NCBI GenBank assembly: GCA_001938485.1
Contig: MQRK01220018.1
Location: forward strand, 1-62,102
DNA length: 62,102 bases
Source of the DNA: Girardia tigrina
Taxonomy: Eukaryota
Direction: 5' to 3'
Shown here: piece after piece, positions 1 through 62,102 of the stretch
Layout: every line of letters starts with the position of its first letter
Position numbering within the stretch: position 1 is the stretch's first letter
Notes under the pieces: model-generated
What the model saw: the letters and a program-made list of their open reading frames with translations, nothing else
What the model was told of the DNA's origin: nothing
The model's database searches: none
Program-made: the position numbers and the translations under genes

Positions 1-298
1 ACAACCGCCTTGGATCACTGTATCCGTTGCTAATGAGAAACGTCCCTTGGTTACCGTCACTATGGTAACCATGACCTTGGTTACCGTCACCCAAAAAAAA
101 AAATTGAAAAAAAATTTTTAAAAAAACCGTTGCCATGGTAACCGCGACTGTTGCTAAGGTGATCGCGACCGTTGCCATGGTAACCGCGACCGTTGCTAAG
201 GTGATCGCGACCGTTGCCATGGTAACCACGATAACCTATACCGTTGCCATGGTAACGGCTGGGGGGGGTGTAGGCCGAATGCCCATTTTCCCCCTACT
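1..298. mobile_element. Terminal repeat of an AGTAG/CTACT-ended element (candidate Polinton/Maverick-type TIR or derived MITE) with a 21-bp tandem array of GTTGCCATGGTAAC palindromes; cut by the window start
   Basis: Ends ...GCCCATTTTCCCCCTACT at 298. Its reverse complement aligns with 61962-62102 (AGTAGTGTAAAAATGGGCATT...). Palindrome units start at 129, 150, 171, 192, 213 and 243. The superfamily is inferred only from the AG...CT termini. Confidence 0.6.
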
Positions 299-552
299 CT
301 CATTTTATACATGAGTTACTCAATTAGTATATAAAGGCTCATAAATGTCATGCACATACTTTTAGCTAGTTATATGTGAATATATTAGGTTATATAAGCG
401 CACACCTTTATTGTCTTGTTTGCTGGTGCATTTATATATGTCTACGCATGGTCAGTCAGTTATATTCGAATTGTATGTACGTCTCTACAACTGCATAAAT
501 TAGCATTTTCATTGTTTTCAAATCGTTTTATAAATTTTAAATTTTTTTGAAT

Positions 553-1976
553 ATGCAACGTCCAACTAGAATAGCTGCAATTGAGGCGAATAGACACATA
601 GCAATTGGTGATGATATTTTTGAAGGTTTTATTTTGAGTTATCTTTTATAACATATAATCATTTTTTACTTGACCAGATGATGAAGAAAAGAAGAAGATT
701 TTTCAGAAGATGATGAAGTTATTTCACATCCAAGAGAGCAAGGAAGTAGTGACGATGAATTAGAAGTGGTAAATAATGATAAGCAAGGCGTTATGATATC
801 TTGAAATGGCATTGACATTTTTGCAACAAAGTGCCGATCAAGTTATAAGCCCGGAGCAGTTGCCACAGTTGATGAGCAATTGATAAAGTTTCGTGGACGT
901 TGCCAATTCAAAATGTTTATTCCAAGTAAGCCGGGTAAATATGGTATGAAATTTTGGGTTGCAGCGGATGCAGGGAATTCATATTGTGTCAACCTTCAAG
1001 TTTACACTGGTCGACGTGGTAGTGAACGTGAGGTGGGACAAGGTACCAGAGTTGTACTTGAATTAACTGAGCATCCGACAAACACAGGTAGACACGTCGT
1101 TGGCAATAACTTCTTTACAAATATTGTGCTTGTTCGCGCTCTATTGGCATGTTGCTCGACTTACCTAGGGACTGTTCGTAAAAATAAAGGTGAACTGCCT
1201 ATGCAAATGTTACCCACGCGACAACGACAGGTTTTGTCACGTACCTTTGGATTTCAACGGGACTGCACAATTGTTTCATACGTACCAAAGCCAGGAAAAG
1301 CTGTAGTGCTTATGTCATCATTGTACCATGATGACTTGTGTGAGGAAGATGTTCCTTACAAACCCCACATGATTCTGGAATACAACTCACAGAAAGGTGG
1401 GGTTGATATTCTCGATCAAAATGTGCGGTGCTACTCATCAAAACGAAAAACGAATAGATGGCCATTTGCATTGTTTTGTAATTTATTGGATATTGGCGCG
1501 TACAATGCTTTCGTGCTCTATACAGCTGTACATCCAAATTTTGCAAATAGATTTAGTCATCGTCGACGCATGTTTCTATTACAACTAGCGACCGAATTGG
1601 TGAAAGTTGATAATCCACCAATGTTGCCTAACCCAGGTGGACAAATTCGTCCCAACCAAAAGCGACGATGCCATTTGTGCCCCGAAAAAATGATCGAAAG
1701 TCTAGCCAACAATGTGACATTTGTTATCAAGCAGTTTGCTTTGAGCACTCAATTCGTCGTTATAATAAATGTCAATAGAACTTTTCATATTCTTGTCATT
1801 GTTTTATAAATAAATAAATTTGTATATTTTAATACTCTTAACTTATTAGTGTGATGTTAGAGACTAATAAAATTAATTTGTTGATAATAGTAACCGTAAA
1901 AATATAGATTCTGTACTGGGGTCCAGCAGACCCCATTTGGTACTCAACGTGATTTTTTTTCTTGATCGTTTAAGGG
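553..1976 (+). mobile_element. piggyBac transposon, defective (internal deletion, stop and frameshifts); right end intact
   Basis: ORF 880-1809 plus upstream codons give TVDEQLIKFRGRC..FIPSKPGKYG, (D>N)NFFT, GTVRKNK, YNSQKGGVD, KRKTNRWP and a Cys-rich tail (RRCHLCP). The right end is AGGG|TTAA at 1973-1980, with a subterminal palindrome TGGGGTC-cagca-GACCCCA at 1917-1935. An acidic N-terminus starts at ATG 553. Confidence 0.93.
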
Positions 1977-4174: not shown

Positions 4175-4281
4175 TTAAGATCGAACTTTTTCAATTTACT
4201 CAAAAAAATTGTTTCCTCTTTTATTTTCTCTTTAATAAACTATTGATTGACTATAAATAGATTTCTTGGAAATGATATTCC

Positions 4282-5509
4282 ATGAAGCGTTTTTATATTT
4301 CTCTATTATTCACTATATTGCGAAGCATGGCATTACGAAAGGAGCTTACGGACTTTGAGAAGGGGATCATCTATGGCTGCCATCTGTGCAAAAAATCTCA
4401 GAGTGAAATTGCACGGCTAACTGGTTACCGCAAATCAACAATCGATTCATTTTTCCGAAAGTATCGCAGCACGTACAGTCATGTGAACAAAGAACGATCT
4501 GGCCGACTAAAATGTTCGGGTAATCGTGACCAACGACAACTTGTTCGAATTGTGAAGCAGAACCGGTGCATGCCCTTGATGCCGATCACTGCTGAGTACA
4601 ACGCAGGCCACACACAGGCAAGCATGTCTACAGTTCGCCGAAATCTGCATTCCTTGAGTTTCTACGAGAGAGTAAGTGCAAGAAAACCATTTATTTCAGA
4701 AGCCATTCGCATGCGGTTTCTTCATTTGTGCAATGCCAGACGTATCTGGACTCCTGCTGATTGGCAGAAAATTATATGGAGCAATGTGTCCCGTTTTACT
4801 CTGTTTTATTCCGATGGACGACAATTTGCATGGCGGCGCAGTGATGAGCGTTTCCATTCTAATTGTATTCTTCAAACAGTTACGTATGGCGGCTGCTCCA
4901 TAAAGTTTTGGAGTTACTTCCCAGTCAATGGTACTGGCCCATTGGTCAAATGTACTAACAACATGAATTCCATGGAGTACCGAGCAATCCTTGAACATGA
5001 ACTACTTCCATTCCTCCCAGAAATTGCCGATATGCTCTTCCAGTACGATATGGCACTAATCCATACGTCGCACCTCATTAAGAATTTCTTCGAAACAAGT
5101 GGCATAAATGTACTGGAATGGATGCAACAAAGCCTCGATTTGAACCCAATCGAATTCATTTGAGATGAGGTAGACCGATGCGTTCATAAAACGCAGGTGC
5201 TTCCACGGAATGCCACTTAATTGGAGCTTCAGCTGCGGAAAGGATGGGCAAATATTCCTCCTCAGCTCCTGAAAATATTGGTTGATTCTACGCCAAACCG
5301 GGAAAGAGCAGTCATAAGAGCTATAGGAAACTTTACTAAATACTAATTTTTCCATTGCCTCACTTGTCTTCTGCATTCTATTTGGGTTTAAATGTTATAG
5401 AATTCATTGTGACTAGTTTAATTTAATTTAATTTAATCGCACCGCTTAGGTGAAGTTAAATCAAAGTATGAAAAAGCTACTGACCGAGGACTTTTGATCG
5501 GGCAGGGTA
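4282..5509 (+). mobile_element. Tc1-family transposon, decayed transposase, right TIR present
   Basis: ELTDFEKGIIYG HTH, RSGR, ARKPFIS, WQKIIWS(D>N)(E>V)SRF, FQYDMALIH, W..QSLDLNPIE. The frame continues past a stop to GNFTKY* at about 5346. TIR-like GACTTTTGATCGGGCAGGGTA ends at 5509. Confidence 0.92.
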
Positions 5510-30254: not shown

Positions 30255-32100
30255 TCAATACTTTTTTTCAAAATTTTTTTCAATATATTTTCGGCTCATA
30301 TCCATATTCCAATGACCTCGTACTGGATTTGAATTACTAATACGATCCATCACTTCATGAATAAAATTAATAGACTCTTCATTCACCTGTTCATTCCATT
30401 GTAATCTATTACACGACCGTTTTATGTAGCTACATACTAAACGCAACAAATTTCCTATCGGGTAAAGACCAATTAATTTTCCACAAATCAAATATAAACC
30501 TCTTATAGTGATCTTATCAGGGACGTTCAAGGACATGGGAGTACTCCTCGACCAGTTTAATACCCCATCACAGAGAGACAATTGAAGACCAAGAACTCTA
30601 GCTCCGTTTAGTTCCTCTGGATCTTTACATTGTAAACCGTATTTCGATAAATTATTCAGCACTTTTCTACGCTCACTTTGTCTTCATTTACAATGATATC
30701 ATCTACATAATGACGAGTTCCACGGCGAACTTTTTCATCAATAGACAAAACCCTTCCTAAAACCATGGACATTATTTTCGGAGCGATACTAAACCAAATC
30801 CTAATCTTGTAAGCTCGTCAAATTCACCATTAATTCGCACTCTCTGATACTTCCATAAAGTTGAATCTACTCCGATTTGTAAATAGGCATTTTTTAAGTC
30901 GATAACTTTGTAATTCTTTGGCATACTTCTCCACTTGCGAAGTTCGTCATCCACTGATACTGCATCTAATGTATGAGAACTAATAAACTGATTTAACTGT
31001 CGATAATCTATGACATTCCTTAATTATATCACATTCATTAATAATATCACATTAGAATCTGATTCAATCTCTATCTCACACTCTCCAAGCACAGCTACTT
31101 CATTTCCATCAACTACTTTAACACACACATTAGACTCAATCATCTTCTCTCTATTTAATTCATATCTTACATTACTCACATCACTCCCACTATCAATAAG
31201 AGCATTAATCCACTTCCCGTTCAACTTCACCATCATCTGCATAGGCACCTTTCTCTGCGCACAAGAATAGGCGGTGCCAACTATTCTTGGTTTAAGTTTA
31301 AATTTGTTCTTACATTTGTTCGCCTTGTAGCCTCCTTCTCCGCAGATAAAAGATTTAATTTTATTACTTGATATACACTCCTTTGCTATATGACCGGACT
31401 TCCTACACGAAAAACACTTCAACATAGAGGTTTTTTGGCGCCTCTCATTCGTCATTGGGCTTTTGCGACATTTTATAAGAATCACCCCGTCACGAGTTAA
31501 TTCCATCGCACCCTGATAAAGCTCTATAACTCGCACATACAGAAACTTTGCTTCTCATCCCGTTGATTATGACCCTGGCCTTTTCCACTAACTTACTTTG
31601 CGTTATCTCGTCTAATTCTATTAATGTTTTCAATTTGATTCGCACATCATCGGGTAAACAGCTTAAGAAAAAACATTTAAATATTTATTCATTAATCGGA
31701 AACTGTGATAATCTGAATAATCGCCTAATATCTTCGGCTAAATATTCAACTGTTTCATCTTTCTGTAACTTATTCGACCGCAACTCTAAAAAGGAATCGA
31801 CATCATCCTTCTCAAAGACTTTTAAGACGGCAGCCTCGACCTTCTCCATATCATTTTGATTGTCTTTGGATAAATTTTGCCACACTCTAAATGCTAACCC
31901 GTCGAAATGCATCGACCAAATTTTCGCCAGTCTTTTCTGCAATGATCTTCGCTCTCTCGAACCATCTATGCACATCTTCGTCGCCTTTGAATATCTTGAT
32001 CATCTTCAATAAAGTCTTCATCACGCGATAGCTTGTGGTTTTCACCAGAAATAGAACACTACTAAACATCAACAAAGTTTATTTAAGTACAACACAAAAA
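30255..32100 (-). mobile_element. LTR retrotransposon gag-protease-RT fragment (Ty3/Gypsy-like domain order), frameshifted
   Basis: CFSCRKSGHIAKEC plus a second degenerate knuckle, ALIDSGSD protease, RT VIDLKNAYLQI...LTRLGFGLVS(AP) and YVDDII at about 30690-30710, then VLGL...CGKLIGLYP. Confidence 0.88.
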
Positions 32101-32819: not shown

Positions 32820-35075
32820 TTGGGTTGGCCAAAAAGTCATTGCGTTTTTGAGTACGTCCTAATAAAAAGCTTGAAAATATAAAACGATGTGATAAAGTTT
32901 AAATTCAATTATATATTCTGAAACCTTAACTTTCACACTATGTTTATGCAAAATATTAATTGATTTTGTTTTAATTTATTACTTTACCGTCAATTGGAAA
33001 TGGAAAATCAAAATGAGCATATTCGTCATGTTTTGTTGAATTATTTTCACAAAGGGAAAGCCACTGTGCAAGCTCATAAGATGATATGTTTTGTATATGG
33101 TAGTGACTCCTTAAAACTTCGACAGTGTCAATACTGGTTTCCTGAATTTCGTTCTGAAAAATTTCATCTGAAAGATGCACCACGCTCCGGTCGACCAGTT
33201 GAAGTTGATGGCGACAAAATAACAGCACTGATCAAATCTAATCAACATATGACGACAAGAGAAGTTGCAGAGACTCTGGAAATATCAAAATAAAGTGTTG
33301 GAAGTCATTTAAGGAAACTTGGATTCGTCAGTAAACTCGATATGTGGTTACCACATGAACTGTAAGAAATTCATTTGGTGAAACGTATAGACATTTGAAA
33401 TTTCCTTTGTGCGAGAACAAAGTGATCCATTTTTGAAGTGCTTGATTACGGGTGACGAAAAATGGATTGTTTACAACAATGTGGACACCGACGATCATGG
33501 ACAAAACGTGTGATCCTGCCAAAACGATCCCAAAAGCAGAAATTCACCAAAAGAAGGTTATGCTTTCCGTCTTGTGGGATTTTAAAGGAATTGTGTTTTT
33601 TGAACTCCTTCCGAGGAATGAAACCATCAATTCAGACAGATATTGTGGTCAGCTGGAGAAATTGGCTCATTCAATTCAACAGGAACGTCCTGAATTGGCA
33701 AATCGAAAAGGAGCTGTAATTCAGCATGATAACGCAAGACGGCATACAAGTTTGACCACTCGCCAGAAACTCTTATCACTGGGTTGGAAGGTTTTACCAC
33801 ACCAACCGTATTCTCCAGACTTAGCCCCATCGGATTTTCACTTATTTAGATCACTGCAGAATTCCTTAAACAGAAAAACATTCGCCAGTGATGATGACAT
33901 CTGTTGGGTTCTTGATCAAGATTATAATTCATTAACACCAAAAATTTATTAATAACACAATTAACAATTATTCAAACAATTTTTAGTTAACAATTTTTTT
34001 TAATAAAAAAATGTTTGTCGAGAAACTTTTCTTCGTTTTCTTTTTGACCAGATTTTTTATATAAAAACCTGAAATTATAAATATAAATAAATTGATAAGT
34101 TATTTTAAAATTGAAAAATTTTTATTTTGAAAATTTACATTCCACTATTTTTAAATTAAAACCAACATATATTTACTAAATATATTTATATATTCATATT
34201 TTTACTAAATTAATCATAATGATTTTTTATTATTTTAGAATTAGTTTAATGTTATTTCTTTCTTTTGTGAAACATTAATAAAGATTTTAATGCTTTTTTA
34301 TTATCAATATTTCAGTTTAAAAGCATTTTTTACCTACAATTATTTTTAATACCATACAAATTTTAAATACGATTTAAATACAACAAAATAATTTACAATA
34401 TTCAAATTTTTATTATTATTACGATACATTAATGATAAAAGTCTTAATATTTATTTCTATTTACGAAAACTGTTTATTTGTTAAATCTTTAATTTGTAGA
34501 ATATCAAACTGATTTTAAAATTTAAAATTATCTGTTTTTTTAACTTTACAACTCTGGAAACAAAGTTTCTTATTTTATTTTTTAGAATAACTTTTAAAAT
34601 TAGTACAACATAATTATCCTTGTCTTTATATATTTCTTTTAAATCAATTATTTAAAAATCCATTATTTCCGAATTAATTTCACTTTAAGTTTTTACTCTA
34701 CAATTAAAATTTGATTATTTTCGAAAATAACTTTATTTAATTAATTAAGATTTATATATTTTTTTACTTAAAATTGCTTTAAAAACTTTTGATTTTAAAT
34801 ATTTAATTATTTTAGAAATTCTTTATAAAAATTTATTGCTTCAAAAATTTTGAAATTGAGCCCGTCCTTCACAACATCAAATCGTTCCTAGACGGCTTTT
34901 TTGCTGACAAAGGCAAATGTTTTTATGAATCATGAATAATGAAGCTACCGGAAAGGTGGAAGAAAGTGATTGAAAATAATGGACAGTATATCGTGTAAAA
35001 ATATTTGTGTATCCATGTCATTTTTTGATAATAACTATTTTAGTAAAAAACGCAATGACTTTTTGGCCAACCCAA
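32820..35075 (+). mobile_element. Full-length mariner (defective), interrupted by a solo LTR
   Basis: Matching TIRs TTGGGTTGGCCAAAAAGTCATTGCGTTTTT at both ends with TA TSDs. Motifs DAPRSGRP, WLPHEL, ITGDEKW, HQKKVML, QHDNARRH, PYSPDLAPSDFHLF. The C-terminus KLPERWKKVIENNGQYIV* resumes after 34878. Confidence 0.96.
33902..34873. mobile_element. Solo LTR (972 bp, extremely AT-rich) inserted in the mariner transposase
   Basis: TG...CA termini with a perfect 5-bp TSD ACATC (33897-33901 and 34874-34878). Excision restores DDIKSFLDGFF. Confidence 0.88.
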
Positions 35076-43179: not shown

Positions 43180-46100
43180 GATGAGCGGTGTTGCGATGAA
43201 GTCGGTTAGCCAGTGGAGCAGAAGCATGTCAATCCTTGCATGATGGGGATTGCTTTTTGAGTATCATCAGCGTCCCAGAACTTCAAAAAAGACAATAAGC
43301 TTAATACCTGAAAGAAGGAGCAAAGTTCACATCGGAGAGAAAAAAGAAACGGTAATCGAAACATTTTCACGTGTTCAATTACCAGGTACCGATTGGAAGT
43401 CTAATGATCAAGCAATCTGCGATGTGATCTGGGTAGCAATCACAAGGCCGAGGCGAACTCCTTCAAATCAAAAGTGGTTACATGGCCACCTAGAGCAGTT
43501 AAATACTCATTGGAGAAATATGGGCGAGACGCACTGAGTTTGTAAGGAATAGAAACAATGACACTTTTTATAGATGGAATTCCAACAGAATACTTCTCCA
43601 GAAGAATATCAGAAGATGGAAACTTAAATGAGTCTAGATTCTATACGACCAAATCGAGAAAATATTGAACAATGATGGAGAAGGAAAACTGAAGGAGCTC
43701 ACGATGGACTACGTACCCTCTGTAAATCACAATTAAAGGAAAATACGCTGTGTTCTCCTTGGAATGCTATTGGGAACAAGGAGCCGATTCACCATTTCAA
43801 TAATCTTTCTAAGGCCTAACTGGAGCACAAGGAACGAACTAATGTCGCTGTAGACACTTTGAATCTCGAGAATTTGAATTCTCCTCCGACGCGAGAGGAA
43901 TTAAGAGGCAGTGAAGCAGCTGAAGAGTGGGACAACCGCTAGATCTGGTGGATTGATCCCAGAAATCTATAAGTTAGGGTGTGTGAAAATACTTACCATA
44001 CTGGAGGTGTGCTTTAGGAACATATGGAATGGACTAGAGGCATTCCTACCAAATTGGAGAGAGGCCGAAGTGTTGATTTTCTTCAAAGGCTCTTGAAAAA
44101 GTCCAAATAACTACCCAGGTATTTTTCTTTTAAATGTAGGAGGAAAGATTCTAGCCAGAATCATCGTGAATCGAATCACTGGGATCACCGAAGTGACACT
44201 GAATGAGTGGCAGTATGGATTCCGACCAGGAAGAGGAACTCAGTTGGCAATAATTATCTTAAGGAAATTGCAGGAGGAAGTGCGATAACAATATGTATGT
44301 CATCTTTATCGACATAGATTTCGACATCTTTATTCGACAGTGTACCCTAATCTATTTAAAGAGACTAGGGATAAAGGGGAGAATGTTAGATATCATCAAA
44401 GATTTCCATGAGGGATTCGAAGGTTCTATAGGGTATGAAACATTTAACATGGATAAAGGAGTTCGTCAAGATTTTGTTTTAGGGCACTCATGTTTAATAT
44501 TGTATTCGATACGGTAGTGAAAAGAGCAATATTGAACGGTCTCGCTGATTGATGAAAAAAAAGTGATGATGAAAAATGAAGATGGAAGCTTCCTTGAGAT
44601 AAACAGATTAGCCTATTCTTACGATTCCTGTCTCATCGACACGGACTGGAACAACCTGATAAATAATTTGATCATTTTAAATGCATCTTTTTTAGATTTA
44701 AGTCTCAAAATTAACATCGGTAAAACCAAAGTTTTGAAGCTAAACGGAGATACTCGGATCCTTATTTCTGGGCACCAGCTTGAGTTAGGTATTGAGTGGA
44801 TCTCTAACTTTAGTTACCTAGGATCCACGATCTCTTCAGCAGGAAACGGGGAGGCGGAAGTGAAAGAAAGAACCAATAAAGAAATCCAGAACATCAGGGA
44901 CCGAAGACCAGTGCTGAAGAGCTCCAAATTGAGTATAATGAATAAGAAGAAAGTTATCAACGCATGCATATTCTTCGTAGTCTACTACGGCGGTGAAGGC
45001 TGAAGAACTGCAACAAGAACATTAAGAAGTTTCATACCCTTCAAAACCTATGAACTAGTATAGTTAGGAAGAAACAAAAGATTGAAAGGATCCATATGGA
45101 CACCCTGGACATTGGACTCCCACATCTCGTGGATAGTTTTGCGAGTAAAATGCTTAATTTACACAGTAAGACGGGAACTTCAGAGGAGTACAAGACCATC
45201 ACACGAATCTAGAGGGAATAAATACTGATGGGGCAAAAGTTCAGTGGGAGAAAGAAGCAATCAATCTTGGAGTACCTTCAAGTGGACATACATTGGCTTT
45301 TTGGGTATGATGTGGTCAATGGAGATTTCGTTAACTACATCATTTACAGAGACCCTACTGTATCGAGGAAAACATACACAAACCCTTTAATTCGATCAGG
45401 AAGACTAAATAGGACAAGAACAACTGTACTGAAGTTAATCAACGAGAGAGAGAAGTGCAACTAATGTTCGGTTGAAAGATGCTACAAGGAGTTTACCGAA
45501 AAGAAGGAGCTGAACAGACACATCAAATGGACCTGTCGGTTTCCCCGTCCGCTAATCCTGATCTGCTCAAAGAGTCGCAACAACAACAATTACCATTCCC
45601 GTGTACACTATGTAAAAAGTCTTATAAAACGAAGAGGTGGCTGACCAGACACCTCAACCTGGATTATAAATTGGAGAACACAGAAGAAATTGGAGAACCG
45701 ACAATGATACGAGCGCAAACCAGTGTAACAAATAACACAGAAGAAAGAGTCGTAGAAAACCTCAACATTACAGGTAATCAGATTCAATCCGTGACAAACC
45801 CCCGACAATCTCGACAGCGCTAGAGGAAGCAGTAGGTACTGAAGAAACATATCTGACTTTTAGGATTGCAGATTTTACTACAAGGGAAGAGTTCAGATGT
45901 CCCTTTGCGGCTGCACGAAGTCCACAAATACAGCCAAAGGTATGCATAACCATGGATATACAATCCTTGGGTGGTTGTTTTTTTATAAGGAAGCCGAATG
46001 GATCTTGTAGACCGAAACTATCTGACCCTGTAGTAGGTCTACGGGGAGGCTGCTAGTGACATTTTAGTTTGGATAAACTCTTTAACGAACCTAAAGGCTC

Positions 46101-49767: not shown

Positions 49768-49897
49768 ATGTCTTGTGATGTACAGAATCTCCAATCTTTA
49801 ATGAAGTTTCGAGGCTTGGAAGCTGTTTCAAAGTTACAAGAATCGTATGGAGGGATCCATAAGTTATTAAGTCTTCTTGGAAGCACACAAAATAATG
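49768..49897 (+). CDS. PMCA: Plasma-membrane Ca2+-transporting ATPase (PMCA/ATP2B-like), first visible coding exon (acceptor at 49746, in frame with ATG 49768)
   Basis: MSCDVQNLQSLMKFRGLEAVSKLQESYGGIHKLLSLLGSTQNNG resembles the PMCA N-terminal L..LM..R.......QESYG motif. Donor GTAAG at 49898, phase 1. Confidence 0.85.
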
Positions 49898-50978
49898 GTA
49901 AGACATAATTTACGTTTTATAAAAACAATTTTCATTTTAATAATATTTAAGAAATGTTTACTCGTGCATTATATTTTTGTATGGATTTCTAATATTATGG
50001 TTTTAATCAGATTTCCTTCTTATTTTGAGAAAATTTTACATTTTTAATTAATAATTATTAATAAAACACGAGAAAATGAACAAATTGTTTTGTATAAACA
50101 GAGTTATAAAAAGAATATAATTTTTAATCAGCAACAAAAATGAAGACTAAAAGAATAGTCAAAATCTCTCGTAGTATCACACGTAATCTGGATCGGAATT
50201 CTGATCAGGAACTTTCATTTTAGAGACATTAAGTAATGTCAATGTTGTCTGAATCGATGTGGCCGTCGTGGGTTTGGGTTTTACTTGCATGGTTTAATTC
50301 CGATTAAATTTTCAATTGAAAATTTTTGTCCGGTAATCAGATCAAAATCACTAGTGGTGAGATATTAATGGTTTTTCGCAAACCTCACTCGATATCCGAT
50401 TTACTATTGGATATTTTAGTTCCTTAATCGTGAGTACAGCAATTCTAAGACTCAAAAAGTCTCCAATACATTACTGAATGTTCATCTATTAATAAAATTT
50501 TGAGTCTTTACAACACAGATTTTTCGATATGAACCCTTTCATTTCTGAAATTTTAATTTCAAAATTTGACGATTGATTGGTCATGTACTTAAAAAAAATT
50601 TTGAGTTCAAATAAAAACCCGAAGAGAAATTATTATTTTTCCTAAACACACAAATTTCGAAGTAAATATTTAAGAAAACAAAACTAAAATAAAAAACAAA
50701 TAGTAATTTAGAGAAGAGAAAACATTTTTTACAAAAAATTTCAGCATTTATAAAATAAAAAAATTTTTGTTTATAATTTTAATTTAATTTTAATTTTTTA
50801 AAAATTTTTTTTCTTAAAACTTTTTCATATAAAAACTTAATCAGAACAAGAAATATAATTTTTTCTCAATTATTGGATGTTTTTTTAAATTGAAACCATT
50901 ATTTGATTTTATTCATGAAAGACATTGATTACTTATTAGTAAACTGTATTTAAAAAAACATTTAGATATTTTATTTAG

Positions 50979-51152
50979 GTATTAAATCGGAAGAACTAAA
51001 TGAAAGAAGGTGTAAATACGGATCCAATTATATAGCTCCTAAACCTCCAAAGTCTATCATGCGTTTAATGTTAGAAGCCGTGAATGATTTTACTTTGATA
51101 GCATTGATCCTATCAGCAGTATTATCAGTGGGGTTATCCCTCTATATTTCAT
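50979..51152 (+). CDS. PMCA: PMCA exon (cation-ATPase N domain and TM1)
   Basis: tttag|GT ATT..: IKSEELNERRCKYGSNYIAPKPPKSIMRLMLEAVNDFTLIALILSAVLSVGLSLYIS. Donor GTAAG at 51153. Phases are compatible on both sides. Confidence 0.92.
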
Positions 51153-51774
51153 GTAAGAAATTATTATTTTGTTTTATCCATTTTGTCCATAGATAATGTG
51201 ATTTTTTATGTACATAAATTTTCTTATTTTAATTTAAATATCTATTTCAACATGACTATTAACAACATCAATATGAGTTTTACAACATTTATTAATATCA
51301 CAAGCACATTCACTATTTGACATCTCTCTTGATCAATATATTTCTGAGTTCAAACTAATTATTTTCAATAAATGANNNNNNNNNNNNNNNNNNNNNNNNN
51401 NNNNNNNNNNNNNNNNNNNNNNNNNNNNNNNNNNNNNNNNNNNNNNNNNNNNNNNNNNNNNNNNNNNNNNNNNNNNNNNNNNNNNNNNNNNNNNNNNNNN
51501 NNNNNNCAAAAATTATTTTAAATCTTTTTACTTTAAAATTAAATTAAATTATTTTTAATTAGTAAGAATCAAAGAAAATATCAATCATCCATCTGTGCAG
51601 GAGAGGCACAATCCGAATCAACATAAAACATGCACAATATCAAGACACAATTTAAAACATTCCTCACAATGACTAAATGAAAAAAAACTTACAATAGTAT
51701 AATATAAATTTTGAAAATTAATTATAACTAAAATAACAGAGATTCGTAAAATTGTTTAAAAAATGTTTGATTGT

Positions 51775-51828
<54 letters not shown>

Positions 51829-51887
51829 TACTATTGANNNNNNNNNNNNNNNNNNNNNNNNNNNNNNNNNNNNNNNNNNNNNNNNNN

Positions 51888-51923
<36 letters not shown>

Positions 51924-53996
51924 TACTATTGACACTTTATATCCTGTGTAACTTAAAAAACACCCTGTATAAATCTTGATTTAATTTTTTTTAAAAAAGA
52001 GAAATAAACTTTTTTAAATAAATAAAATTTTTATTTATTTTTTTTAAAAAAATGATAGGTTTTAATTTGTAGCTGAATTATATTTTTATTTACATTAAAT
52101 TAGAATTCTGGTCACTTTCTGTGTTTTGATAGACTACCCATTTTTGTGAAGAACATTGAGACTGTGAATAATACTTTGAGGGTTTGATGTTTGGTGTTTG
52201 AATGTTGTATATTGATTTGGAATTGTGTCTCCTACCTAGATAACTGATTAATATTTTAATTATTATTATCTGAAAATATATAATGTTTAAATTTATTTTT
52301 AATTCAAAATAATTGTAAATTTAATTAATGTTATTTACAATTTTTAAATAAATTAATGAAATTAATATTTTTTAAATAATTAATAATCATTTAAATTTTA
52401 ACCAATAAAATTTTGAATAAATATTTTAACAATTTATGTAATTCAAAATTTGCTCAGATAATAAGATGAAAGTAATTAATCAATTAGTTAGAATGCAATC
52501 GTACGAAAGCTTTTGACAATCAAACTTGTTATGCTAATAAAAATATTAAAAGTCAAATTAGTGTTCTTAATAGAGATAATTTTAATTAGAATTTTTATTG
52601 TTATCACATTTAGATTCATCACAACTCTTGGAAGATCGTTCACTGTTTGACAAAATCATAATTAAACCATTTCTTTATAAAACTCAAAATAATAAAAAAT
52701 TTATAAAATTGTTAAAAATGAATTTAATTTAAATCTACTGAAATGCTTTTTTTTAAAAAAATATATTAAACTAAATTTTAATTGTTAATTTGAAAGATAT
52801 AAACTTGTCATGCTATTATTTTAATTATGTTCAAATAGTCAATCACTGTAAATATAAAAAATACCAATTTCCATCTGGGTGGAAGAATCATCATTCTAAG
52901 TTAAGCATACTCAAATCAACATTCAATATCAACACATTCACACATTCATACAATTTAAAATATTTCTCACATTTTTAATGTTTAAAATTTGTTCTTACAA
53001 TAGGAACCACCTAATGATGTTCTGTTAAGAACGGAATATGCCGTGACTTTTACTGATATAATAAACTGTTATTAAAAATTCGTGTATATTGTTTGATGTT
53101 CATTCAGCATGTTAGTCTTTCATATTTAATTTAAATAATATCAAAATAATTTTTAATAATATAATTATTTGATATTACGAATACTTTACAAATTAATGTG
53201 TATTCAAATTATTATTATTCATTAAATAATTAGAAAACTTGTCAAAAATCATTTGATTATATACATAAAGTGAATGTAAAGAAAACTCAATGCTTCTAAT
53301 TACATTGACAAGTAAAATGATACTTGGAAAGTTATTGCCGCTTATATTTGCATCTGTCTCGATACTTGATGTTTTGTCCTATTGTCTGGAGAACAAGTCA
53401 CGGAACTGATACTTTTTCCATGAAATTATTATTTATTATTTAATTTATGTATATCATTCGTAATTTTGTTTTTTTCTGTATAAATATAAAAAATTAAAAA
53501 ACAGAAGCAAAATATTAAAATAAAATGTCTGAAAAGAAAAATAGTTTTCTTTATATTATAAAAACAGAATTAATCTAAATAATTGAAAAGAAATTATTCG
53601 ATAATATGTGTTTTGGCTCTTATAAGATTCTTTACTAATGAAATAAATGATAAAATGAATCAATTAAATAGCTATGAGAAATTATTTTTTATAATATTTA
53701 TATTTGAAAGTGAAATTAAAATGAATTTGCATAATATTAATAATTAAGTTTAAAATATATTGTTTTTTTGGAAAAATATATTTCAGAATATTAAATAATT
53801 AATGTTTGTGTTTTTAAATTTTGTTAATATTAAAATAATTTGTTAATTAATATTATTAATATGAATTCTCAATATTTATCATCATTTCGCTTAAAATTAT
53901 AATTTTATATTATTGAGTCTTATGGTCGCTGATTTTATAGATTCCAAAGCATGAACAATAATCAATTTCTTTAAAAAGCTTTAACAAAAATATATT

Positions 53997-54043
<47 letters not shown>

Positions 54044-55182
54044 AAGAAAACTGTAAAATTATCTATAATGATTTCCCAGCTTTCTTTAACTTAGTAAATA
54101 AAAAAATAATAACTTAATTATTAGATTAATAGAATTTATTTCAACCACAACAGAAGGAGTGAAAGAATGATTATATCTATTAGCAACATCACAATTTGCG
54201 TGAACACATTTGTTTACAACACAAACAGTATCATTCTCAGTAGTACTTTTTGCGGGAAGCATATATTCAGACCTTTGATTAATGAATGTGATTTTATAAT
54301 TATTATTATTATTATTATTATTATTATTTAATTGAATAAAAATGCAATAAGTTAATTTTAAAATAAACATTAGTTTTTAAATCATAATATATTCAATAAG
54401 TTAAATCGTTTATTAAAACATTTATTAAATTTATAATTACAAAACTTTTAATTAATTAGTATTTAAAACATTATTTCCATATAATTATTTTTATTGTTTT
54501 ACATTTTTTATTATATCAACAAGTTGCTCAGTATCGTTTGGAGAGAGATTTATTAATCTACTACCACCAAACGGTTGACCCCGAATCAATCGAACGTGAA
54601 TAAAAATAAATAAAAAAATAAAAATTAGAAAAAAATATTAATACGTAGTAATAATAATTTGAATTTAAAAATCAGTGTAAATTTAAATTCAACTCACAAC
54701 TATCTAATATTATTTATAAACTTACTTACTGGCCACTGCTCTTCACAATCGGAAAAAAAACTACAATTTCTGACTACCTCCTTCAAATACCAAATTGAAA
54801 GTAATTGTTCCGGATACTTCAGACGATAATAGAATTATACAATCACCTGTTGTTTTCGAGCAAATATCGAATTATTTACTCCAAAAACAAATAGTTTATA
54901 AAGTGCCTACAAATCATTATTTATATTATAAAAATCTTAAATAATATATTAATATTAAATTACCATATAATTATTTATTTTAACTATTTTTTTAACAAGA
55001 CAATTTTTTAAAAAGCTATCAGTTTTCTGATTTTTTTTATGTATGAAAGTGAATCTATAGCCGTCAATTATGCCATTTTCGAAAAAAAATCATAAAGAAA
55101 GAAAGAAATTTATTTTTATTATTGTTTTTATTTTTATGTAATAAAAATTCATAATTGTATTTCTCTATAGTAATATCGATTA

Positions 55183-56010
55183 TGGGCTGTTCATAAATTA
55201 TTTCACACGAAAAAATGACTTTTTAACCCCCTTCCTCTTCTGTCACAAAATCTCTACCACCAACCCTGCTTGTTACGTCACAAAAAATCATTTAATTTTT
55301 TTTATAAAGAAAAAATACTATAATTCACATTTTTTAAATATCATTTTTCTTCATAATTCCGTGTATTTTTCAAGTGTGTTTCAATATTAATCAAAAGAAT
55401 GTTTCCATCGAGAATGCATAGATCAGCTCCAATTACTTGAGCATCGAGATGTTCTTCATTTATCCATTAGACATCTTCATCAATTTAAATCAAGATTTCT
55501 TTCTTTCGCTTTGCTATTAGTTTTTTTGACTTCTTTTTAGTGTTGATAATACGATTATGGATGCTCTTACGATGAATTTTTAACATTTCTAAAGAAGTTC
55601 AATATAAATTACAGCCTACACAGACTCGACTTGAAGCAATTTGGCTGATAGAAGGACAATATGTATCGTAAAAAATATTCTGACTGGAAAATGCCTGATT
55701 TTGAAATAAATTCAGATAAATAATTTTTGAAATAAATAAAATTTTTAAATAAATAAAATTTGCACCACTATCTTTATATACACTTAATATAAACTTTATA
55801 CACTAATTTAGTCAAAAATAATAAAGAATAAAATTATTATAAACTCTTACTTCAGATTTTATCATTGATTACTTAAATATTTTAAAATTTGATACCATTG
55901 ATTTTTATCTTAGAAAATCTTTGAGACGTCACAAAATATTATAACCCCATCCTCCTGTCACAAACTTCTAGACCCCCTCCCCCTAAAAGTGTGACATAAT
56001 TTATGCCCCT
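55183..56010. mobile_element. PIF/Harbinger-type MITE
   Basis: TTA|(T)GGGCTGTTCATAAATTATTTCACAC ... GTGTGACATAATTTATGCCCC, with GTCACAAAA subterminal repeats and C-runs. Confidence 0.7.
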
Positions 56011-56155
56011 TTCGAAATTGCTATAATATTGACAATTATTTCATAAATTTTAAAAATTAATTTTTTGAGACATTCAAACAATTTTCTTAAAACATAGTTT
56101 TAAGCGGTGTTCATTTATTTATTTTCGAAGTTTGTTTTATTTGAGATAAATTAAT

Positions 56156-57047
56156 TGTTCCGGGCAATCCCCAGGTCGATGTTGGCAGCGGAGTGCAAGG
56201 AATTATATAAAAGCTCAAACTCAGTGTGCTGGGCCCATTGTATTATTATAAATTTCATCGTTTTTCTTTTTCAATATTCACATTCAAAATAAAGTGACTC
56301 AATTTTAAAGCTTTATTTTTATTTAAGAAAATAACAAACTTTTCGTCACTTTTTAAATAAAATAACTCAGACGATTTCGCTACTTTCAATTCAGCTAGTG
56401 ACAAATTTTTGACTCTTCAATAAAAAAACATAATTTCGAAAACTTTTAATAAAAAAATAGTTCATCATCAAAAAACTTTGTCGTCAACATTTAGACATGT
56501 TTGAAAACCAAATAAATTTGTGCCGTCCAAAAATAGGTACGTTTAAAAATTCAAAAACAAAATCTTTTTCATCAAATCAATTAATCACCTTTTTTCGAAA
56601 ATTTCGAATCAAAATCAAGTCGACACTTTTGAAGACAAATCAGTTATCAAAGACACTTATCATAATTCGCATTCGCTCAAAAAAAATAAAAATTAAAAAG
56701 TATGAGAAATTCTCTCACTCCCGATTCGCTCTGATTAGATGAGTAACGACAACTCAGAGCGAGCCATTTTTATTACAACACTCTCTCTCACTATTTCATT
56801 TGCACACCAGCTACACACTGGATCACAAAGAAAGACTAACTAACTAAAGGCAAATGAAATTCAATAACAAACAGAGTCACATGACTCTAAGAAATAATTC
56901 AAAATAAAACTTAGTACAACTCAGTTTCTGAATTAAAATTTTAATTCTCTTTGTTCGTTATTAACGAATGTTAATCAAAACTCCATATTCCATCAATTAT
57001 TATTTTTTTTTAATTTTCATTTAAATTCCGATTCAATCACATTTACA
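56156..57047 (-). mobile_element. LTR-like unit with a tRNA-iMet-fragment primer-binding site (PBS 56226-56238)
   Basis: The minus strand reads ...TACA|ATGGGCCCAGCAC, complementary to GUGCUGGGCCCAU of initiator tRNA-Met. The far LTR end (TACA at 57047) is tentative. Confidence 0.6.
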
Positions 57048-57062
57048 GGTGCAAAAAAATTA

Positions 57063-57642
57063 CAGTCAGGTGCAAAAGTTTGTGAACGCTTGTTTCTTTA
57101 CTGCTTTTTATTGTTGTGCTACTTGTTTGTGTATTCCTTGTTAAGTATATATAAACCATTTAAATGATTAAATGCATATTTTATTTTTATTACTTTTCAA
57201 GTTATAAATTGTCATTATTTATTTTAGAATCATGCCTGTCCGCGGTAAGGAGTTTACAACAGAACAGCGTGCAGCAGTTTTGGCATTGCAGAAGCATGGC
57301 GTTTCTCATTGAAAAATAACAACAACTCAATGTTTATCTGGGAGTTGGGTGTCAGACGTTCAGAGAAATAGGGAGACTGGTTCCTTATGTTCAAGATCTC
57401 GATCTGGTCTTCCAAGGTAAACCAGTCAAAGAGACTGGTTGAAATATTAATATACAAAATACTAAATATACACTGGTTTTTCGTGGTTTATGTGCCAATT
57501 ATGACAAGTTTTGATAAATTTGTGTCTTATCATAATATTCTAATAAAATCTTTGTATTTTGGTGTGCTTTTGCCAATATAATTGCAGTTGGGTGCAAAAG
57601 ACAATTTAACAACAAGCGTTCACAAACTTTTGCACCTGACTG
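57063..57642 (+). mobile_element. Internally deleted Tc1 element (MITE) with both TIRs
   Basis: TA|CAGTCAGGTGCAAAAGTTTGTGAACGCTTGTT ... AACAAGCGTTCACAAACTTTTGCACCTGACTG|TA. N-terminal transposase remnant MPVRGKEFTTEQRAAVLALQK. Confidence 0.93.
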
Positions 57643-57972
57643 TACATATTAATATGTATATAAGAAATCACAACAAATTGAATTGACAGAGATTGTCATT
57701 CAATGACCACAAAGTCGCTTTGAATTTGACTGTCCGAGAGAATTCAATATGAGGATTCGAAATTATAAATAATTATAATAGTACATATTAATGATACGTA
57801 TTGAGTTCCGAACGTTATTAATTTTTCTCTTAATTGATCTAGTCAATAATACCATCGCCAATTTTTTCTTTTTCTTGGTGATACATTTCAGATACTCCAT
57901 ACAATCAGTCAAACATCAAACATTTTGTGATCAAAGTTTCGATTAACTATACCATAGTATTTTGATTTCTTC

Positions 57973-58930
57973 TGTTCCACCCGAACCTCAGGTTGCCCCG
58001 AGAATCGGATGGAGTTAGCCTCATTGCGTAGCGGTGGAGAATTTTCTCTTTCAGAGTTCTGGGCCCATTGTAGTTAGGATTTCTTTGAAATAATCATTCT
58101 TATGTCGTAAATTTTCAAATAATCCGAGGATGGTTTCCTGTCGTTCCACGAATAAGAATCATTCTAAAGCACACAATCGAATTGATCGATCATCGAATAA
58201 TTTGGCTGATAGTCTTGCACTTCGTTTTCAAATGACAAAGAAATAACGTTCATTTTTGACTAAAACTTTTGTCTCAATTTTCTCAATTGTACAAATTTCA
58301 AATTCAATCCTGGTTGGTAAAGATTGGGTAGATTATCAATCCGTTTGACTTTTTTTCACGAGGGGCTACTTTGTCCAAATGTCGATAACTGAAAGATGTT
58401 TCAAGATTTGGTAAAGACATTTCGTTTTTCAAATAAAGAATGGTTCTTCAGAGTAAATAAAGAAATTCTAAGTACTTTTCAATCACCAGTGTATTTTCCT
58501 TTTTATCAAGCATTCCGACAATAAACAAAATTCGAATTTCAAAAAATATTCTTAATCAAAAAGAAATTATAATTTTCCAATAATACACAAGATGATCCAC
58601 TCAAAATCCAATTCAAGAAAAAATAATAAAAGGTGAACTCACTTTACAACCAATGCAAAAGGTAAATATTGCAATTCAAATCAAAAACGTAAGATATCAA
58701 ACAATCCAATTCAACACAAAATAAAACAGTGTTCCAATTCAATAATCGATGTTTCAATAATCCAAATTTCAGTATCATCACAAAGTTCAACTTCGATCGA
58801 TCATCACAAAAAACTACACATTTAAAAAAAAGTATCACATTTTTGTACTTGGTGTCGTGTGCAACCAATCCGACCTCTGGCACAAAATTTCTCTTTATGA
58901 AATGAATACATTTTTATTTTGTTAATTACA
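57973..58930 (-). mobile_element. Second LTR-like unit with a tRNA-iMet-fragment PBS (58059-58068)
   Basis: The minus strand reads CTACA|ATGGGCCCAG. The LTR termini TGTAGTTAG (58069) and TTAATTACA (58930) are imperfect inverted repeats. Confidence 0.6.
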
Positions 58931-59152
58931 CGGCGTGAATTGACCTGATTATGGGATTTTTATCTCGAAACGTGACATCTCATTTTTATCTTGTAAATAT
59001 ATACACATATATATATATAGAGAGAGAGAGTCTTATGAACACAAATTCAATATTATTAAAAAATTATTTACTTAAAAAACATTTTTGAAGAAATAATCAT
59101 ATTTTGATATTTAATTCTAATTATTCAGTAAACAAAATATTGCTAATAATGA

Positions 59153-60125
59153 TCAAGAAACCATCAAAACATGTTCAATGATCCTAAATGGTGATGCGAG
59201 AGCGAGCGCAGCTTTGTGGCCGCGGCGTGATGGCGATGGTGGGTGGGTTACGGGACGCGGGGGGTTTAAATTATTAACCTCACTGGTCTGTGATTGTATG
59301 GCTTTTTGATAGAGATATATTTTCTGATAGGATTCACGATAATTAGGTAGTAAATCTCGTTTAAGATTTTTATCATTTGTTGAACTTATTGCTTTGAAAA
59401 AACCCATCATGATAGCCCTCTCAATCATGGATCTATTTCGAAAACTCATAATTGCCATTTCTGTCATCTTTATTGGAATAAGGAGACGAAGCATTTTCAA
59501 AATCATCAGCATCCCGATTTGGATGTTTCAAACGATTAATTTGATTTTCGATAAATTTAATTTTTAATTTGGATTTCTCATATAATCGTTTCGTTTTTCG
59601 CTTTTCCTTTGTGTAGATTTATTAACTTTTCTGCTCCATTTTTTNNNNNNNNNNNNNNNNNNNNNNNNNNNNNNNNNNNNNNNNNNNNNNNNNNTTTTTT
59701 ACTTTAATCTCAATTTCCAATCGGTGTTGGAGATTGCGTAAGCATTTCTCATAATTAGAGTCCGTCTGGTTTGTTTTCCCTGTTTCAGGATTCTCGAATT
59801 GTTGAAGCGACAAAATATTATCCTCCAAATCATCAATTTTATATTTCAGATCATTGATCTCGTTATTGAGCGTCTTGATCAATGGCGGCGCGTTGTTATT
59901 CGCTGCGCCGTTTGTGTTCGCCTGAGACATTTTCTGCACCGCCGCTTTCGTTTTATATCGAATATTAAGCTCATTTCGATAATCGCTCACTTTATTCTTC
60001 AAAATTTCAATCACTTCTCTGTATGATTTATCGCCGGAAATTTTCTACTTTTCGAAAATATCGACTGATTTTTCCATAAAAATTGTAAGACCGTTTGCGG
60101 CCAAATCTTCATCCACACTCAGCAA
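59153..60125 (-). pseudogene. Unassigned coiled-coil coding remnant (probably TE- or virus-derived), spanning an N-gap
   Basis: The ORF contains heptad-like LIKTLNNEINDLKYKIDDLEDNILSLQ. The frame extends upstream through one stop. It is antisense within the PMCA intron. Confidence 0.35.
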
Positions 60126-60439
60126 AAATCAAATTCGCGCTATTTAAAATTTATTTATTTATTCAATTTAAACAAATCGAAAAAATCTTTTTTCAACGAA
60201 TCTTCAACAAGCAACATCAATATTTCATTTAGCGCAAACTTTTCACAGTACAAAAATATAAAACATTGTTATAAATTAACTATATTAGTGATTGATATCA
60301 TTTTTAATATAAATCTTCAATTTTTTACATAAACACTGAATTTGTGAAAGCACATTGTTTTAACATAGAAATACGTAATCAATTTTTATGTAACATTTAA
60401 TAAATCATTCATAATATCATCTAATTCAAAATTACAAAG

Positions 60440-60752
60440 TGGAGAGTTGACCAAAGTCAATCGAAGGACTTCCATGATTTGCTTCTTTATTTAAATTGAA
60501 TTGATTTATTCTTTCTATTCGAAACGATTTGTTTCAAATTGACTTTCGATTTCGATTTTTCATTGATCGATAATTTTGAACTAGATTTTTTTTATATCTT
60601 TGTAGAGTTTGGTTGATTTTTGGCTTTGATTTCTGCGTTTTAGTCTCAATTACTTTCGGAGTTAAATCAGCCCCATCATTTAAAAGATTTTTTTTCCAAA
60701 TATTATTTTTGGGGTTAACTTCCATATGGGCCCCCCGAATGAGAATCGAACA
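60440..60752 (+). mobile_element. Short LTR-like unit (60440-60724) followed by a tRNA-iMet-type PBS TATGGGCCC
   Basis: Inverted termini TGGAGAGTTGACC / GGTTAACTTCCA, with TATGGGCCC immediately after the CA. Confidence 0.5.
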
Positions 60753-60978
60753 CTAAACATTAATTAATATTTTTAAAATCAGTACATAATTATATAAAAA
60801 ATTTTCGTGTAAATAAAATCGAAAATTATGTATTGACATTTGACATGTCAATATTAATCCTACAAATAATACCAAATTATTGCTTTTTTATAACTCAATA
60901 TTTTGTACATTCATATACTTACTCGGAAATATTCTCATGAAAATATAAAAAAGTAAATTCAATCGATTATTTTTTTTC

Positions 60979-61014
<36 letters not shown>

Positions 61015-61423
61015 TATGGATGACAATTCTCGAAATAAATAATTGATCGTACTCAATCATGAACCAATTTATTTTATGATAATTAAAACACAAATTGGGT
61101 ATATAAAGTGCTCTTTGACGTTGCTGAAGTTTTATATATCTTTTTATTTTTTTTCGACAATAAAGAATAAAAAGAGATTAAAAAACCATTAAAATATTTT
61201 ACAAAAAAAGAATAAAATTTACAAATATTATTTGTTGGGTATTTGGTAAAATCATAATTAATAGAAGACAAACAAAATTTAGATATTAAATGATAAACAA
61301 GAAGACTGTTTTCAAAATCTGAAAAGATTATTCTCCTTTCGTGTCTGTCGTATGTCTCCGGATAAATATAGCTCAACTTACATTGATTAGTGTTTTGTTA
61401 TAAGTTTTTTTATTTTATCATAG

Positions 61424-61678
61424 ATATGGGTCATACAATTATCACTGGAGACGAAACGGAAGCTAGTTCCGGTTGGATTGAAGGTTTAGCAATTTTATTT
61501 GCCGTTGTTCTTGTGGTTCTTGTGTCTGCTATTAATGATTACCAAAAGGAAAAGCAATTCCGCGGCTTGAAAGCCCGAATTACGGAAACAAATCACGTTG
61601 CTGTAGTGCGTGATGGTTGGATTACAGATGTAGCAATATCAGATCTGGTCGTAGGCGACATTTGTCAAATAAAATATG
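61424..61678 (+). CDS. PMCA: PMCA exon (TM2 and start of the actuator domain); the gene continues beyond the window
   Basis: catag|AT ATG..: GWIEGLAILFAVVLVVLVSAINDYQKEKQFRGL...VVRDG...DLVVGDICQIKYG are diagnostic PMCA motifs. A phase-1 acceptor joins the previous exon. Donor GT at 61679. Confidence 0.96.
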
Positions 61679-61961
61679 GTTAATTTACTATTTTTAATGA
61701 TTAATGTTTAAAGTTGATTTATTAATTGTATTATTGATTATTAATTGTAACTGTAAAAGTAATAAAATGATTATTTTATACAATGTATTATATTTTTATT
61801 GTCATTATTGTTGTTAAGAGCACTGACAAAATTGTTAGAAAAACTTTTGTTAATATCACATTTAGATTCATCACAACTTTTGAAAGATCTTTCAAAGTTT
61901 GAAATTCTAATTGATTTTTTATTTTATTTAATTATTCAAACAATTTTTCTTTATCTTTTTA

Positions 61962-62102
61962 AGTAGTGTAAAAATGGGCATTATCCCTCACCCCCCCCCT
62001 AGCCGTAACCATAGCAACGATATGGGTTATCGTGGTTACCATGGCAACCGACCCGATTACCATAGCAACGGTCGCGGTTACCATGGCAACGGTCGCGGTT
62101 AC
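61962..62102. mobile_element. Start of a second copy of the AGTAG-terminated X-box-array element, inside a PMCA intron; cut by the window end
   Basis: AGTAGTGTAAAAATGGGCATT..C-run..GCCGTAACCATAGCAAC. GTTACCATGGCAAC-type units start at 62035, 62056, 62077 and 62098. Confidence 0.65.

Follow-up and report, generated by a model that had tools for sequence, protein, structure and literature searches.

Maverick/Polinton elements end in terminal inverted repeats whose outermost letters follow a short motif and whose inner part can carry tandem repeats (PMC8097293, PMC8969392, PMC6431247). The commonest end motif of vertebrate Mavericks is (AGT)2, and end motifs of this kind are thought to serve protein-primed copying (PMC8097293). 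Full Mavericks are mostly low in copy number, with a median of 8 (PMC8097293), and non-autonomous Mavericks are not reported from the anole. Protein-primed copying is presumed for Polintons. In the adenovirus inverted terminal repeat, a terminal short repeat is followed by a core and then, tens of bases in, by sites for the host factors NFI and Oct-1, which bind there and join the replication complex (PMC6141750). RFX proteins also bind viral DNA: RFX1 and RFX3 recognise the D sequence of the AAV terminal repeat and increase the expression that it drives (PMC5760533), and RFX1 sites lie in the hepatitis B and polyomavirus enhancers (PMC5760533; PMC7077322). As a monomer RFX recognises GTTRCY, as a dimer the X-box, and this specificity is retained across animals and fungi (PMC10530576).

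Here we describe an element end in a stretch of 62,102 nucleotides from Girardia tigrina (assembly GCA_001938485.1, contig MQRK01220018.1, positions 1 to 62,102, forward strand), which we call the window. The locus resembles Maverick/Polinton ends in its (AGT)2 terminus, exact in one of two copies, in its inner tandem repeats, and in sharing the design of an end joined to a protein-primed polymerase (pPolB) gene in another animal. It differs in abundance, since full Mavericks are usually far rarer, and in its X-box array, for which we found no earlier description. The adenovirus repeat has the same order of terminal short repeat, core and inner sites, but its host factors are NFI and Oct-1, whereas the window ends carry up to six or seven putative sites in a row. 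The AAV, hepatitis B and polyomavirus cases share an RFX site within a viral terminal repeat or enhancer; in AAV it is a single site with a demonstrated effect on transcription, whereas the window holds an array of putative sites in an integrated invertebrate element. X-box promoters of ciliary genes share the exact match to GTNRCC(N0-3)RGYAAC, but as single sites near the transcription starts of host genes (PMC10530576), not as arrays in a repeat.

Element ends and the X-box array in the window

The window is AT-rich animal DNA, rich in transposon remains. Its features are as follows.

1 to 298, minus strand: visible mobile-element end, read inwards from 298 and cut by the window start
24 to 91, no strand assigned: degenerate inner units, with a half-site at 26, a box with 3 mismatches at 56-69 and a 15-bp repeat at 45-91
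93 to 126, no strand assigned: A/T tract on the inner side of the array, recognised by sequence
126 to 231, no strand assigned: 21/42-bp array, with full X-boxes at 129, 171 and 213 and half-site units at 150 and 192
243 to 256, no strand assigned: outermost X-box, nt 43-56 counted from the terminus
261 to 268, plus strand: run of eight G (G8) between terminal core and first box, recognised by sequence
278 to 298, minus strand: terminal 21 bp, a candidate core origin and integrase site; 18 of 21 positions common to the second end
293 to 298, minus strand: AGTAGG, the outermost six letters, agreeing with the Maverick (AGT)2 motif at 5 of 6
299 to 1976, plus strand: piggyBac copy, the insertion target; left end removed by the insertion, TTAA at 1977-1980 after the right end
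49774 to 61680, plus strand: plasma-membrane calcium ATPase exons (49774-49899, 50978-51145, 61414-61680), by protein similarity, best hits 59%, which places the host among animals
61962 to 62102, plus strand: another end belonging to this family (the second end), which opens with AGTAGT and has boxes at 62005, 62035, 62056 and 62077; cut by the window end

The preliminary description proposed that a mobile element terminates at 298. This is borne out: the same terminus occurs at two unrelated flanks, and the junction lies at exactly 298/299. Intact piggyBac contigs from two public runs (2,402 and 2,164 bp) match the window from exactly 299 and continue past that point for 237 and 30 letters unlike 1-298, and X-box family contigs in two runs end at 298. 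Since the two sets of contigs meet at this point, 298/299 is a true insertion junction. The target retains a frame (805-1806) that matches PF13843 with an E value of 3e-44. This piggyBac copy is without about 440 bp at 803-815 that the intact contigs have; the sides of the gap overlap by 13 bp, resembling a deletion through a short repeat.

The second end, which like the target piggyBac is missing from the preliminary description, matches the first at 87% identity over 136 bp on the opposite strand. Both ends face out of the contig, so they represent two insertions, and the assembly broke inside both element copies. The second end begins about 280 bp beyond the last visible exon of the calcium pump, which places it in an intron of that gene. 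The flanks at the two termini are CTCATT and TTTTTA; one flank per insertion is visible, here as in the related DNA treated below, and the search yielded no complete element. A search of 96 frames for Polinton genes gave 0 hits in the window; the interiors of the elements lie outside it. Elsewhere in the window, the set 4276-5163, 33446-33952, 31024-31999 and 44536-45003 comprises Tc1-like and mariner transposase remains together with frames that, by eye, are gag-protease-like and reverse-transcriptase-like.

The array itself is present as first described. The 14-mer GTTGCCATGGTAAC is found at 129, 171, 213 and 243 and GTTGCTAAGGTGATC at 150 and 192, and the G-run and CTACT terminus reported to follow lie at 261-268 and 294-298. 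A seventh, degenerate X-box at 56-69 was absent from the first list. The 21-bp period of the first five units is exact, from 129 to 213, and Tandem Repeats Finder resolves 126-231 into five units of 21 bp or, with 96% matches, into a 42-bp dimer present 2.5 times; the step from 213 to 243 is 30 bp and off the period. The X-box consensus fits the 14-mer at its four sites. The two units at 150 and 192 do not match it strictly on either strand and have the strong half-site alone.

The X-box array is far beyond chance. Positions 1-298 contain four strict matches, whereas 5,000 first-order resamples had 0.0098 on average and never more than 2; the window interior of 61.7 kb holds one strict match and, at 2 mismatches or fewer, none to the 14-mer. 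The strict consensus is matched by 4 of the 6 units in the left end and 3 of the 4 in the right, and the rest retain the strong half-site. Read inwards, the half-site GCAAC is invariant in all 10 units of both window ends, and the other half varies; the invariant half is the RFX monomer site GTTRCY (PMC10530576).

The family reaches far beyond the window. The sequencing runs that we used come from relatives of the window source, none containing half of the words of 1-2300. X-box ends are present in three of the four runs examined; the fourth, X22, has zero reads on 1-600. The summed depth over 201-300 relative to piggyBac depth is 427 in X1, 2,271 in X3 and 29 in X5, ratios that are not copy numbers, and 176,793 contigs matched in X1. 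There is little doubt that the family is very large. Depth peaks over the array, and array length and make-up vary among loose ends; spacers that differ in sequence but are again 7 bp long occur in 3 of 24 loose-end rows among the matches listed. Loose ends also carry CCAAT-like motifs further inwards, and one joint is readable as an end inserted into another copy. Because full Mavericks are mostly rare per genome, we infer that the family is non-autonomous; it probably lacks genes of its own and depends on a full element for its movement.

Related ends in another animal

A genome scan for two boxes 3-33 bases apart yielded 73 loci, mostly bacterial operators or coding repeats. One of them, L254, lies in a bacterial bin (G001) yet looks like animal DNA. 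The bin gives 7 matches to the pPolB family. A G001 integrase that carries a chromodomain has 17 related loci, 16 of them in G001. Dozens of animal Polinton contigs lie in this bin (L254, L448-L464, L485-L501, L538, L539).

On its small contigs, an X-box lies within 300 bp at 6 of 24 AGTAGT sites examined and is absent at the other 18; the six were found through the motif, so the ratio is not a frequency, and three of the 18 show less than 200 bp. As background, 63,428 bp of G001 Polinton gene contigs contain 0 box matches at 2 mismatches or fewer. Over the whole of G001 the pattern AGTAGT...GGGC has 33 matches against 39 for the control, and in view of this lack of enrichment we do not count it as a motif.

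Two of the boxed AGTAGT ends, C44 and C203, have one box each, at nt 38 and 37 from the terminus; the first box of the window ends lies at nt 43-44. On C44, a 490-aa frame 1.13 kb inwards of the end is 45% identical to a G001 pPolB (E 5e-106). Its 10 database hits are proteins of 947-1321 aa, 8 of which have the Pfam families of the G001 polymerases. In at least one animal, then, a Polinton does have an X-box-bearing AGTAGT end.

The other four ends (C62, C422, C433 and C143) form a group, family A, with three boxes each at steps of 21 and 21 bp. Box orientation is that of the window, and the first box lies at nt 113 (C62), 114 (C422), 84 (C433) and 102 (C143); the spacers are unlike those of the window. 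The preliminary description had made its reading depend on palindromes being better conserved than spacers. In family A, variable columns number 10 of 42 in boxes versus 8 of 14 in spacers (Fisher p = 0.044, from four related copies picked by motif), and pairwise differences are 33 of 252 in box columns and 27 of 84 in spacers. Between the two window copies, 4 of 56 box positions and 5 of 37 spacer positions differ, changes too few to tell.

Terminal sequence links the window ends to these groups to different degrees. At nt 7-36, only 0-13 of 2000 shuffles match C62 and C433 as well as the window ends do; C143 is not similar. The comparison with C44 gives 38-40 of 2000 shuffles for nt 7-60 and is not significant for nt 7-36 (32 comparisons in all). 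The window ends are thus closer to family A than to the pPolB-linked C44, and they show no resemblance to the box-less AGTAGT ends of G001, family B. On the contigs seen, family A is never joined to genes. A path by way of C476 and C424 that would have connected family A with pPolB was rejected: it consists of 48 bp of repeat in an inconsistent direction.

Smaller likenesses and peculiarities accompany these ends. A C-run in G001 ends takes a position similar to that of the window's G8 run, and an A/T tract inside the array of C422 is 81% identical over 27 bp to the window tract. Long inverted repeats lie inside C44, C203 and the family A ends. In C143, a family B end is inserted within a family A end. 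In L254 (1843-2100), the X-boxes are accompanied by a long inverted repeat, by three CACGTG motifs and by YY1-like repeats, four in number, at a 15-bp step. At L551 (1056-1390, on G001:C90), AGTAGT is followed by about 15 units of 20 bp, mostly with the half-site GTTGCT, behind a long hairpin.

The nature of the element and the reader of the boxes

The window holds ends of two separate insertions of one family, which we consider likely, judging by sequence, to be of the Polinton/Maverick type. Against the Polinton end motifs (AGT)2 or (AG)3, the right copy reads an exact AGTAGT and the left copy matches 5 of 6 letters. The Polinton-type end of the preliminary description gains from this agreement with the Maverick motif and from the X-box AGTAGT end joined to pPolB in another animal.

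Granted an element of this kind, we find it rather probable, by analogy with NFI and Oct-1 on the adenovirus repeat and RFX1/3 on the AAV repeat, that the boxes are kept because a host RFX factor binds them. The end would be built like a protein-primed origin with helper sites: a terminus of AGT repeats, followed by about 20 bp of conserved core and, from nt 43 inwards, by X-boxes. Host RFX, if it sits on the boxes, could open the end and assist either in loading the polymerase of the element or in transcribing its first gene. Dependence on RFX would tie the activity of the element to RFX-rich cells. Multiplication of the boxes next to the end in a very abundant derivative fits a role in movement, insofar as the derivative is non-autonomous. 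The reading as a whole, a Polinton-type end whose boxes recruit host RFX beside a terminal origin, we hold to be evenly balanced between right and wrong.

Helical phasing at two turns is plausible but falls short of proof, because the outermost step is 30 bp, tandem duplication of a 21-bp unit by itself yields the period, and the pPolB-linked end has a single box. Spacing by two turns occurs in two families; since C44 manages with that one box, phasing may only add strength.

The boxes could instead be read by the element's own protein, be it an integrase, a terminal protein or some accessory protein that binds DNA, or they could serve as hairpins once their strand is displaced; the likeness to X-boxes would then be incidental. 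Subterminal repeats of DNA transposons are often bound by the element's own enzyme, and arrays of a like palindrome exist in bacteria. Of 200 shuffles, 199 fold less well than the strand itself (z -2.7), and long inverted repeats mark C44, C203 and the family A ends; the folding score, however, is explained by the palindromes themselves. The motif agrees with the RFX consensus at all 14 of its positions, with a pattern of strong plus weak half-sites, and it also occurs in ends of unrelated element types beside E-box-like, YY1-like and CCAAT-like motifs, which points to host factors. A search for RFX-like domains in four bins gave 0 hits with controls equally silent, and so weighs little against a reader encoded by the element. 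Overall, we regard this alternative to a host RFX factor as improbable.

Similarly improbable, in our judgement, is that one box or none matters and that the array is a neutral minisatellite, made by 21-bp slippage and phased by accident. Such an origin would suit the 42-bp dimer repeated at 96%, the variation in length and make-up between copies, the 30-bp outermost step, the lone box of the pPolB-linked end, and an AGTAGT site in G001 with half-sites at a 20-bp period. It sits less well with family A, a distantly related family in another animal that keeps steps of 21 and 21 bp with different spacers while its distance to the terminus varies by 30 bp; the pattern by which family A was found permitted 3-33 bases between boxes.

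Other rivals concern the kind of element. The family could be a short non-autonomous cut-and-paste transposon or a rolling-circle derivative of another superfamily, with an AGTAG end by chance. Elements of these kinds typically reach very high abundance, and X-boxes are known here from a TTAA-flanked element of 660-670 bp as well as from further invertebrate repeats. In addition, one of the 6 motif letters is missing in the left copy, and the first 11 nt of the window end differ at 3 places from the pPolB-linked end of C44, which comes from another host. Under the Repbase rule, a gene-less element is assigned by first 11 nt with at most 1 mismatch to a member and by the same duplication length (PMC4455052). 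The site of insertion speaks against this rival, as the flanks CTCATT and TTTTTA offer no TA, TTAA or T/T target, and the junction at 298 rules out shorter TAG- or TA-based ends. Tc1/mariner-pogo, piggyBac and Kolobok elements have a TA or TTAA target site. These three were rejected by the flanks and by the intact piggyBac, which matches only from 299. Helitrons and Helentrons are marked by TC...CTRR ends at an A/T site or by a 5'-T end inserted before T (PMC8969392); they were rejected too, the window end reading CTACT then C or T, with neither the CTRR nor the 5'-T marks. We judge an origin from another superfamily quite improbable.

A plain satellite with no defined end, the alternative named in the preliminary description, agrees with the break of both contig ends within the repeat and with the highest depth over the array, but it is largely refuted and was rejected as very improbable, since two copies end at the same base against unrelated flanks and one of them splits a piggyBac at a junction that intact copies confirm.

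The question of how animal Polintons are copied, and in what cells, gains a candidate host factor from a recurring, exact X-box module beside a terminus. If the boxes are bound by RFX, this abundant family is a large reservoir of sites for a master regulator of cilia genes; if they are not, it is an ordinary transposon end carrying a tidy minisatellite. A bolder extension of the RFX reading, which we consider doubtful, is that RFX plays in one Polinton branch the part of adenovirus NFI and Oct-1. A host factor bound in phased rows just within a protein-primed origin would couple copying to cells rich in RFX, ciliated or sperm-forming ones. A gene-less derivative that amplified such a row would have spread X-box clusters by the many thousands through this genome, in numbers sufficient for competition with the ciliary gene programme or for its rewiring.

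Our full-text literature search, which covered mainly open papers, returned no description linking Polintons with RFX beyond an unrelated mention, and no host factor named for Polinton ends. Judged by title and the start of the abstract, none of the papers found for the 14-mers deals with mobile elements; a C. elegans Polinton preprint mentions putative factor sites in its repeat. The X-box array lies in a real element end and offers a lead to a host factor, and, as far as we found in these papers, it is undescribed.

X-boxes and similar palindromes elsewhere

X-boxes are not a constant feature of Polinton-like ends. In G002, elements of about 20 kb with integrase and short pPolB-like frames have no X-box in their 600-bp inverted repeats. 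These elements (L401-L420, L465-L484) occur in many copies and have inner tandem repeats, and their ends are TGTTGTAG-like rather than AGTAGT, which makes them an imperfect control for Polintons. A 23.5-kb linear element in G005 (C284, L540-L541) has short inverted ends, pPolB, an A32-like ATPase and a family 18 glycoside hydrolase frame; its ends have no X-box. The family B ends of G001 have none either.

X-boxes are also carried by other invertebrate repeats. The TTAA-flanked element of G002 (L377, L390) has one X-box 141-151 bp inside each end, and X-boxes are therefore not specific to Polinton ends.

Searches for the window's own pattern were largely negative. Exact 19-mer scans gave 1 viral and 22 metagenome loci, none with the array or the window terminus, and the exact two-unit pattern gave 0 matches in genomes and 0 in viruses. 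Among viral contigs, none of the 120 loci that match the terminus pattern belonged to the best hits obtained with the window ends; AGTAGT plus a box had 75 loci, none with a cluster of three boxes; and an integrase query returned 0 of 7 candidates. Pairs of the YY1-like motif occur at 26 and 56 loci, with a nearby box at L254 and L306 only.

Palindromes of a similar build occur in bacteria. Two Bacteroidota bins (L502 2875-3081, L506 2230-2480) have 20-21-bp tandem arrays of a CCATGG-centred palindrome; these were found with a pattern of fixed spacer, and RFX is not expected in bacteria. At L222 (5001-5044) and many other Acidobacteria loci, paired GTTGCTAAGGCAAC palindromes stand upstream of a gene; they are probably a bacterial operator, unrelated to the window array.

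RFX controls nucleotide genes in yeast. An arrangement that recalls this occurs on a 40-kb viral contig, where an X-box and a CCAAT-like motif lie between dUTPase/ribonucleotide reductase and ThyX genes (L018 8116); on the same contig, two boxes 43 bp apart precede another frame (L144 10001-10057).
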